The translations under genes were made by a program, and so were the position numbers. 11,891 bases of DNA from a virus, in UHGV virus genome UHGV-1567921. One strand, written 5' to 3'. The notes below the pieces were generated by a model. The model saw only the letters and a list, made by a program, of their open reading frames with translations. It did no database searches and was not told the origin of the DNA. Of the stretch, positions 8,803 through 10,020 are shown in pieces (the first letter of the stretch is position 1; each line of letters begins with the position of its first letter).

Positions 8803-10020
8803 ATGCCAACTGAATATGCTCGCGACAACCTTGGTCGCTATCAGACTGATGGATTAAGTGCAAAAGACTTTAACAAGGTCTTCGATCTTATCCGTAAACA
8901 GCAGCGTCAGAATCGGCGAAACGCGCGACGTACACTCACCCCAAGGATTATGGGGATGCGTAACCGCGAACTTGAGGCATTCCTCAGCCTTGGGAAAAAG
9001 AAAGATGGCACCTACTTTACGCCCGAAGATATACGCAGTTTCAACACCTCAAGGCAGGCTCATAAAACCAAATTCAAGAGCACGGTACCCGGCATTACCT
9101 ATGCTCAGCTGGTGGCGCAGTCCACCAGCATTGATATAAAACGCGCTAACAACAAGGTTTCTGATGGCACAGGGATCAAAGCCGCGACATTCCTCGGGCT
9201 AAAACACAACCTTGCATTGATATCTGTTAATGCCTCGGATGAGTCGGTCCACCAGCATCACCGTGTCAGAATTCGATTTGAGGAATGGGATAAAGCCGTT
9301 GAGGAAATTGCTGAAGACGGTGCGAAAAAAGCCCGAATCGCTGCCGATCTCTGCAAGGGCCGGGTATCTTTCGACTGTGATTGTGGACGCCATCAATACT
9401 GGTATCGTTATATGGCCACGGCTGGTAACTATGCTGTCGCGCCGCCAAAAGAGTATGCATTCCCCAAAATCCGCAACCCTGATCTGACTGGTGTGGCTTG
9501 CAAACATGTTTTGCACGCTATGACGCGTTTTCAGTCTCCCACATGGCACAAGGCCATCATTATTGCCCTGGAAAAAGCAGCTGAACAGGTAGCCTTCGGC
9601 GATGACAAGCGGAAGACAACAACCTATTTCAAAGGCGAACTGGCTAAATCGCTCGCGCGCAACCGGACAACAACGACGGATCAGGCTAAAGCTGCGCGTG
9701 AGTATGAGCTGTATCTGAAATCTCAGGATGCATTAGGCAAAAAACTACGCGCAAAAGATAGCGCCACGGACAACGTTCGCCGGTTGTTAAAAAAAGCTCG
9801 CACCACGGCAAACAGGAAGAATGCCGAACTAAAAGCATCGCGGGTGAGGGAAGCCCAGGCTCGCGCTGAAGCCGACGCTCTCAAAAAAGCCCTGCAAACG
9901 CAGGCGAACAACCTCATAAAGTTTTTCATGAGTCAGGGAATGGACAAGGCCGCTGCCACTGCGCAGGCGCGAAGCATTCTTGAGACACAAATTAACGAAG
10001 CCCGTAAACGGAAAGGATAA
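8803..10020 (+). CDS. Hypothetical protein with a CxC...CxH Cys/His cluster (SWIM-like arrangement) and basic coiled-coil C-terminus, 405 aa
   Basis: FDCDCGRH ... GVACKHVLHAM (nt about 9376-9507) gives CxC-x38-CxH. The C-terminal ~100 aa are K/R/A/Q-rich and helical-looking. ATG 8803 with SD; stop TAA 10018-10020. Confidence 0.85.
   Translation: MPTEYARDNLGRYQTDGLSAKDFNKVFDLIRKQQRQNRRNARRTLTPRIMGMRNRELEAFLSLGKKKDGTYFTPEDIRSFNTSRQAHKTKFKSTVPGITYAQLVAQSTSIDIKRANNKVSDGTGIKAATFLGLKHNLALISVNASDESVHQHHRVRIRFEEWDKAVEEIAEDGAKKARIAADLCKGRVSFDCDCGRHQYWYRYMATAGNYAVAPPKEYAFPKIRNPDLTGVACKHVLHAMTRFQSPTWHKAIIIALEKAAEQVAFGDDKRKTTTYFKGELAKSLARNRTTTTDQAKAAREYELYLKSQDALGKKLRAKDSATDNVRRLLKKARTTANRKNAELKASRVREAQARAEADALKKALQTQANNLIKFFMSQGMDKAAATAQARSILETQINEARKRKG

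Follow-up and report, generated by a model that had tools for sequence, protein, structure and literature searches.

Late gene 25 of bacteriophage P1 encodes a strongly basic protein with a predicted split SWIM-type finger and a possible role in tail completion or head-tail joining

Bacteriophage P1 serves as the standard phage for generalized transduction in E. coli and as the prototype of phage-plasmids with resistance genes. Its gene 25 was recognised decades ago, as were the essentiality and the approximate phenotype of this gene. The gene was defined by amber mutants and is hence counted as essential (PMC10695390). In GenBank, "tail stability" is annotated for genes 25 and 7, and "baseplate or tail stability" for gene 24. 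Knock-down of gene 25 with dCas12a gave an EOP of only 0.11, for which the authors blame an ineffective roadblock, and knock-down of gene 25 or 26 showed no polarity on downstream genes (PMC10695390).

Virion mass spectrometry detected gp25 as a weak signal (2 unique peptides, 8.4% coverage); gp7, which is present in six copies, also yielded 2 peptides, and the baseplate proteins PmgA, gp26, gp5 and UpfC escaped detection altogether (PMC9024508). The authors of this study left the role of gp25 open ("virion structure or co-factor"), matched gp24 to T4 gp15 by HHpred and proposed PmgB, encoded upstream of sit, as the tape-measure chaperone (PMC9024508). Their HHpred result for gp25 was "None >50%" (PMC9024508 supplement). 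Two cryo-EM studies model nearly every P1 virion protein, and gp25 is absent from both atomic models, of virion or tail (PMC12810830; bioRxiv 10.1101/2025.07.21.665459). In these models, gp6 is the hub, gp5 the spike and gp26 a six-fold baseplate "plug" resembling T4 gp53 (PMC12810830; bioRxiv 10.1101/2025.07.21.665459); the neck has gp7 as its hexameric stopper, and the tail terminator is gp24 (PMC12810830). No density was given to gp25 in the neck and terminator, whose resolution was 3.5-4.5 Å (PMC12810830; bioRxiv 10.1101/2025.07.21.665459). The channel formed by portal, adaptor, stopper and terminator is unusually wide, with a minimum diameter of about 40 Å, and wider than in Mu, E217, Pam3 and phiTE (PMC12810830). 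With a channel of about 40 Å, DNA retention in P1 heads is not obvious from the modelled proteins. Gp25 was thus an essential late protein with a mass-spectrometry signal in the virion, previously without a fold, a location or a mechanism.

SWIM fingers and T4 gp2 are among the described systems closest to what is presented here. The canonical SWIM finger has a spacer of roughly 6-25 residues, and according to Makarova, Aravind and Koonin (2002) it is reportedly predicted to bind DNA or proteins. Gp2 of phage T4 is a low-copy virion protein, and T4 gene 2 mutants are defective in heads and DNA, not in tails.

The window analyzed in this study is a stretch of 11,891 nucleotides from the UHGV virus genome UHGV-1567921. 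A megablast search with positions 8300-11891 matched bacteriophage P1 (NC_005856) at 99.4% identity, with 98% of the query covered. The + strand of the window is the reverse complement of the deposited P1 record, and a window coordinate equals the L001 coordinate minus 701. The product of ORF 8803-10020 is 99.8-100% identical to gp25 of P1, RCS47 and SJ46. In the P1 record this protein is YP_006549, labelled "25, tail stability" (NC_005856 annotation). By tblastn, P1, P7, RCS47, SJ46 and other punaviruses encode gp25 at 99-100% identity, and the phrog_1722 profile ("tail protein") matches residues 1-405 with an E-value of 1.6e-227. Given these matches, there is hardly any doubt that the ORF is late gene 25 of P1. 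An earlier note, made from the DNA letters alone, had described it as the largest rightward gene, and it is indeed the largest ORF on the + strand; pmgS, on the - strand, encodes 420 aa. In the P1 annotation, gene 25 comes second in the late operon 26-25-7-24-6-5, which has LP26 as its promoter and a C1 operator ahead of it. The window contains the following parts of this operon.

8327..8343, + strand: C1 repressor operator O26 (former Op82), upstream of the operon (NC_005856 annotation, L001 9028-9044)
8368..8386, + strand: late promoter LP26, driving 26-25-7-24-6-5 (P1 annotation)
8368-8376, + strand: -22 box of LP26, AAATGACTA, found in the window with 0 mismatches
8381-8386, + strand: -10 element of LP26, TAGAAT (P1 annotation)
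8416..8793, + strand: gene 26 (gp26, 125 aa), baseplate "plug" (phrog_1269, E 2.7e-40; annotation; cryo-EM)
8803..10020, + strand: gene 25 (gp25, 405 aa plus stop), ATG start (ORF list, P1 annotation)
10024..10752, + strand: gene 7 (gp7, 242 aa), neck stopper (annotation; cryo-EM, PMC12810830)
10739..11524, + strand: gene 24 (gp24), hexameric tail terminator (annotation; HHpred to T4 gp15, PMC9024508; cryo-EM, PMC12810830)
11526..11818, + strand: 5' part of gene 6 (baseplate hub), cut off where adapter sequence starts

The last 73 bases of the window (11819-11891) are not phage DNA but untrimmed Illumina TruSeq adapter, made up of AGATCGGAAGAGCACACGTCTGAACTCCAGTCAC, the index TGACCA, ATCTCGTATGCCGTCTTCTGCTTG and a poly-A run. 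This adapter explains why records of unrelated phages from Bacillus, Staphylococcus and Vibrio gave matches at 93%, as well as the false C-terminus (…EIGRAHV, then stop) of the truncated gene 6 ORF 11526-11840. An internal late promoter was also sought as an explanation of the CRISPRi result, and only a box with 2 mismatches was found, at 10073. There, within gene 7 (10073-10094, + strand), AAGTGACTG and the TAACCT after it are similar to the -22 box and -10 element of LP26. Being 50 nt into gene 7, this box cannot account for the lack of polarity of CRISPRi roadblocks in genes 25 and 26 on genes 7 to 5. On the other side of the promoter, the divergently transcribed pmgL (8024-8269, - strand, 81 aa) adjoins the operon. 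Its product has cysteines in the arrangement CxxC-x9-CxxxC and a match to DksA-like zinc-finger proteins (phrog_54, E 1.6e-12), which makes PmgL a second small zinc-finger protein beside the operon. PmgM (7443-8021, - strand) has a match to the VRR-NUC nuclease domain that lies just below the Pfam threshold (E 3e-4; 21.3 vs 23.8 bits), and another to a PHROG that carries the annotation Holliday junction resolvase.

Three parts are shown or predicted in gp25: a basic N-terminal arm, a core built around a Cys2-Cys-His finger, and long basic C-terminal helices. Their positions in the window are as follows.

8803..9075, + strand: N-terminal basic region, aa 1-91 (sequence)
9076..9603, + strand: compact alpha/beta core, aa 92-267; three-stranded sheet, helices, then finger
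9358..9528, + strand: split SWIM-type finger (predicted), aa 186-242, with the predicted ligands; most conserved segment
9376-9378, 9382-9384, 9499-9501 and 9505-9507, + strand: codons of the predicted ligands C192, C194, C233 and H235, respectively
9415..9489, + strand: family-specific insert in the finger, about aa 205-229, with invariant E217, P221 and N225 (E..FPKIRNP.L.G)
9604..10017, + strand: C-terminal basic helical tail, aa 268-405; charge and helicity conserved, sequence poorly so

The AlphaFold2 model of gp25 places an Arg-rich helix at aa 20-40 (KDFNKVFDLIRKQQRQNRRNA) within the N-terminal region. The core (aa 92-267) was modelled with a pLDDT of 96.4 and a pTM of 0.91 from an alignment of 150 sequences. 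In this model, a three-stranded sheet is followed by two helices, a strand ending at C192, and a helix after C194; a long loop then leads to a helix that starts at C233-K-H235. The insert thus appears as a helix and then a long loop between CxC and CxH. Further helices are predicted in the tail at 294-316, 320-377 and 382-404 (AlphaFold2). This agrees with the basic helical C-terminal tail proposed in the earlier note: RKNAELKASRVREAQARAEADALKKALQ is present there, and residues 277-405 have a pI of 10.6. A GenBank note describes the tail as similar to a myosin coiled coil. The C-terminal end of P1 gp25 is another small helical unit with a conserved Gly (G379). Several distant relatives (e.g. 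P0264, P0251, P0215, P0213 and P0202) end instead in a short "aGLIT..EYd.y", which we take to recall the SHOCT oligomerisation motif.

The CxC-x38-CxH cluster that had been noticed in the sequence is present in gp25 as C192-D-C194-x38-C233-K-H235, with a spacer of exactly 38. There are four cysteines in total (184, 192, 194 and 233), and C184 is variable among homologs, unlike C192, C194 and C233. When gp25 was shuffled with its composition kept, C.C.{5,60}C.H occurred by chance in 29 of 200,000 shuffles (1.5e-4). Among 40 homologs with identities as low as 40%, C192, C194, C233 and H235 never vary; the same holds for 29 sequences at about 20-30% identity and for 150 sequences. CxC-x(36-44)-CxH is present in each of the 252 homologs of 300 aa or more that were retrieved, the spacer being 37 or 38 residues in 243 of them. 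The finger (aa 186-242) is the most conserved segment of gp25, with a mean top-residue frequency of 0.62-0.77, vs 0.28-0.44 elsewhere. Within the spacer, E217, P221, K222, N225 and G230 are invariant or near-invariant.

It had also been suggested that the cluster is of the SWIM type with a longer spacer. The CxCxnCxH signature and the behavior of the sequence once the insert was excised speak for this, whereas the native sequence has no Pfam SWIM match. Native gp25 matched no Pfam family at E-values up to 10, PF04434 included, and does not reach the gathering threshold of 19.6 bits of the latter; SWIM was absent among the 25 Pfam families listed for 40 native homologs scanned singly, which were coiled-coil noise. 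Library searches of the kind proposed as a check in the earlier note gave the same picture: the native protein, the 40 homologs and a 150-sequence profile returned only coiled-coil noise from Pfam, NCBIfam and PDB sequences. Foldseek of the gp25 model against the PDB found no significant relative (best E 0.61). Gp25 is outside PF04434 as this family is now defined.

The insert was then excised in silico by joining gp25 up to Y199 to the residues from G230, which is a contrived test. In the excised P1 protein, PF04434 became the top Pfam match (E 0.018, 15 bits), under the 19.6-bit cut-off. In diverse family members treated in this way, SWIM was matched in 33 of 40 at E ≤ 1, with a best E-value of 1.7e-8, and every other Pfam family was matched by at most one of the 40. 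Although the test is contrived, this specificity for SWIM is hard to explain otherwise, and the finger of gp25 is read here as a split SWIM-type finger. We thus consider it very probable, from sequence comparison and modelling, that the finger of gp25 is of the SWIM type, divided by a conserved helix-plus-loop insert of about 25-30 residues and with a predicted zinc site. It follows from such cases that SWIM fingers with inserts escape current profile libraries. A literature search found no paper tying SWIM fingers to phage tail proteins, and none that speaks of a "tail stability protein". The finger region of a distant member gave a weak tblastn match (E 7e-4, 38% over 60 aa) to an unannotated stretch, 138868-139047, of the 176-kb Gram-positive phage vB_SagM-GXN1 of Streptococcus (PQ819873.1); this stretch may be another SWIM finger, split or ordinary.

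The whole gp25 protein has a pI of 10.1 and a net charge of +35. Its homologs are just as basic, with a pI above 9 in 251 of 251 and a median of 10.06. The median net charge in these 251 homologs is +10 for the N segment, +10 for the core and +15 for the C segment; the N segment is net positive in 240 and the C-terminal tail in 248. Since all segments are basic throughout the homologs, strong positive charge is under selection across the whole of gp25, and beyond the tail that had first drawn attention. Nucleic-acid binding, put forward in the earlier note, is plausible as a putative property of such a sequence. Gp7 has a pI of 4.1 and a net charge of -34, of which its N-terminal 84 aa carry -23. 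The family at the gp7 position has a median net charge of -11, and the medians of the capsid, sheath and portal families range from -11 to -17. The first 84 residues of gp7 (window 10024-10275) form an acidic extension, complementary in charge to gp25 (+35), which is encoded immediately upstream.

A profile search of 1.84 billion cluster representatives (50% identity clusters) assigned 662 clusters to the gp25 family at E ≤ 1e-3, and 207 at E ≤ 1e-30; among the matches listed, nearly all are 320-450 aa long. Cultured phages with a member are the P1-like phages, Acinetobacter phage ABMM1 and Xanthomonas phage Rb1. Scanning species-representative genomes with a 9-sequence profile gave 164 relatives, and the 80 that were kept come mainly from Gamma- and Betaproteobacteria, on contigs of about 70-100 kb and on chromosomes. 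Among PHROGs, gp25 matches only phrog_1722 and phrog_4315 (function unknown). No match was found between gp25 and known neck, terminator, tail-completion or Mu F / SPP1 gp7-like families in Pfam, NCBIfam and PDB sequences.

Gene neighborhoods were compared in a sample of 70 diverse IMG/VR loci. This synteny comparison, which the earlier note had called for, revealed a block of a gp26-like gene, a gp25-like gene and a gene for a protein of about 170 aa that recurs across these viral contigs. A gp26 homolog lies directly upstream of the gp25-like gene in 53 of the 70 loci, and the profile of the upstream neighbors matches P1 gp26 (E 1.4e-10). The protein of about 170 aa (phrog_4597) is encoded directly downstream, at the position of gp7, in 59 of 70. 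Both counts are lower bounds, because the simple ORF caller at times chose antisense ORFs. The outer flanks differ between loci, with capsid and sheath genes, a portal gene and a gene for a large lytic-transglycosylase protein, or fibre-like genes. Two loci (L088 and L089) have the full P1 gene order down to a recognisable gp5 homolog; profiles of the neighbor clusters c5 and c40 gave no significant match to gp24 and gp6.

In a Vibrio P1-like element the block encodes proteins of 107, 383 and 169 aa. The 169-aa protein is 47% identical to gp7 residues 85-233 and is without the acidic extension. As this match covers gp7 85-233, the core of gp7 is about 155 aa long and its acidic N-terminal extension lineage-specific. 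Homology of the family of about 170 aa to gp7 was not evident in hhalign, which gave E-values of 0.04-0.06 and a probability near 1%, also when three gp7 sequences were used as the profile. The two share size, collinearity and a short motif at an equal relative position, and the downstream gene is treated here as a putative positional equivalent of gp7.

What gp25 does can be approached from its neighbors. Gp7 is the stopper and gp24 the terminator, which places two of the three members of the "tail stability" class at the head-tail junction. Tail completion or head-tail joining is the most economical reading once this phenotype class is combined with the place of the gene in the operon, the low but real virion signal and the lack of gp25 in symmetrised maps. 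We give a probability of roughly 35-40% to this main reading, in which gp25 takes part in one of these two steps, in few copies or transiently, and binds a polyanion through its basic arms. Gp25 would be a morphogenetic factor acting in few copies or transiently at the head-proximal end of the tail, beside gp24 and gp7. The predicted zinc site would most likely be structural, shaping the core and the conserved loop so that a partner protein can dock there. The basic arms could bind acidic structural proteins such as gp7, the lumen of the tube or neck, or a DNA end. A protein that is asymmetric, flexible or lost after assembly would be invisible in symmetrised cryo-EM maps. We infer the location from the phenotype class and the ligand from the charge. 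Moreover, the "tail stability" phenotype could in part be amber polarity on the downstream genes 7 and 24.

The charge, the Arg-rich helix and the SWIM finger also fit the main rival, that gp25 is a DNA-end-binding pilot or protector and a functional analogue of T4 gp2, which we consider unlikely. A few copies might sit on the DNA terminus in the portal/neck channel and help to retain it or to position it for tail joining, and gp25 might be ejected with the DNA and protect its ends. In T4, gene 53 lies by a divergent block of genes 4 (head closure), 2 (DNA end protector) and 3 (tail terminator), followed by gene 5. The P1 order is parallel: 26 (gp53-like), 25, 7 (stopper), 24 (terminator), 6 and 5. 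T4 gp2 resembles gp25 in charge, with a pI of 10.1 and +29 net, vs 10.1 and +35. The rival would also account for the low virion signal and for the absence from symmetrised maps, and the P1 connector channel, about 40 Å at its narrowest, is not closed by the stopper (PMC12810830). However, the phenotype annotated for gp25 concerns tails, neither heads nor DNA, T4 gp2 has no Cys, and its homology to gp25 is undetectable. Homology between the two was tried with the gp25 family alignment against T4 gp2 and rejected (hhalign probability 0.1%, E 0.46).

A further version of the DNA-terminus idea is quite improbable: gp25 might be the missing asymmetric component of the neck, sitting on the DNA terminus in the wide channel, where it would gate or retain the genome, and being ejected with the DNA. 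If this were true, gp25 would be a candidate for the protein that circularises abortively transduced P1 DNA. Sandri and Berger (1980) are said to have described an unidentified protein that holds the ends of this DNA in a circle; a literature search on a protein attached to abortively transduced DNA found no usable text.

The weak virion signal can also be read the other way, since the two gp25 peptides could be lysate carry-over. Gp25 might then act only transiently, as a chaperone or scaffold of assembly that the mature virion lacks and that contaminated the sample, similar to what catalytic hub factors or tape-measure chaperones do in other myophages; this too we find unlikely. It appears in neither cryo-EM model, only two peptides were found and a "co-factor" role was allowed by the authors (PMC9024508). 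The tolerated knock-down (EOP 0.11) fits a factor needed in small amounts (PMC10695390), and the long helices are like those of assembly scaffolds. Yet gp25 was detected while several genuine baseplate proteins of 3-6 copies were missed, and the role of tape-measure chaperone is already proposed for PmgB (PMC9024508). Nor would a scaffold explain the conserved net charge of about +30.

Finally, a non-structural, nucleic-acid-binding regulator of late transcripts or their translation, for instance balancing the downstream tail genes, is highly improbable: the Arg-rich motif, the predicted zinc finger, the basic tail, the unexplained non-polarity of the 25 or 26 knock-down (PMC10695390) and the automatic annotation of the Xanthomonas phage Rb1 homolog as an MvaT-like regulator would suit it, but that label comes solely from the low-complexity tail, the gene is always within structural modules adjoining gp26-like and gp7-position genes, gp25 was detected in purified virions (PMC9024508), and Lpa-dependent late promoters such as LP26 already account for P1 late transcription (annotation).

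Altogether, what appears to be new is that gp25 has a predicted split SWIM finger and a basic architecture in three parts, how large its family is, and that its gene sits in a conserved block. The predicted split SWIM-type finger and the strongly basic arms hold for several hundred sequence clusters from proteobacterial phages and prophages. The four predicted ligands and the loop residues E217, P221 and N225 provide experimental handles on gp25, and its testable roles are narrowed to tail completion, head-tail joining and DNA-end handling.

Compared with SWIM fingers of PF04434, of which ZSWIM8 (PDB 9rwz chain M) is a solved example, gp25 shares the CxCxnCxH ligands. It differs from the canonical form by the spacer of 36-44 residues in its family, which results from the conserved helix-plus-loop insert. 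Classical SWIM fingers are found in helicase, transposase and ubiquitin-ligase settings, whereas gp25 belongs to a phage late morphogenesis operon.

Within this operon, gp7 and gp24 are like gp25 in their annotated phenotype class and in their low abundance in virion mass spectrometry. However, both are acidic and form six-fold rings resolved by cryo-EM, whereas gp25 is strongly basic, has a predicted metal-binding core and is absent from the models. Outside P1, T4 gp2 matches gp25 in the place of its gene, between a gp53-like gene and the head-closure and terminator genes, and differs from it in size, with 274 aa and no cysteines for T4 gp2 vs 405 aa for gp25.
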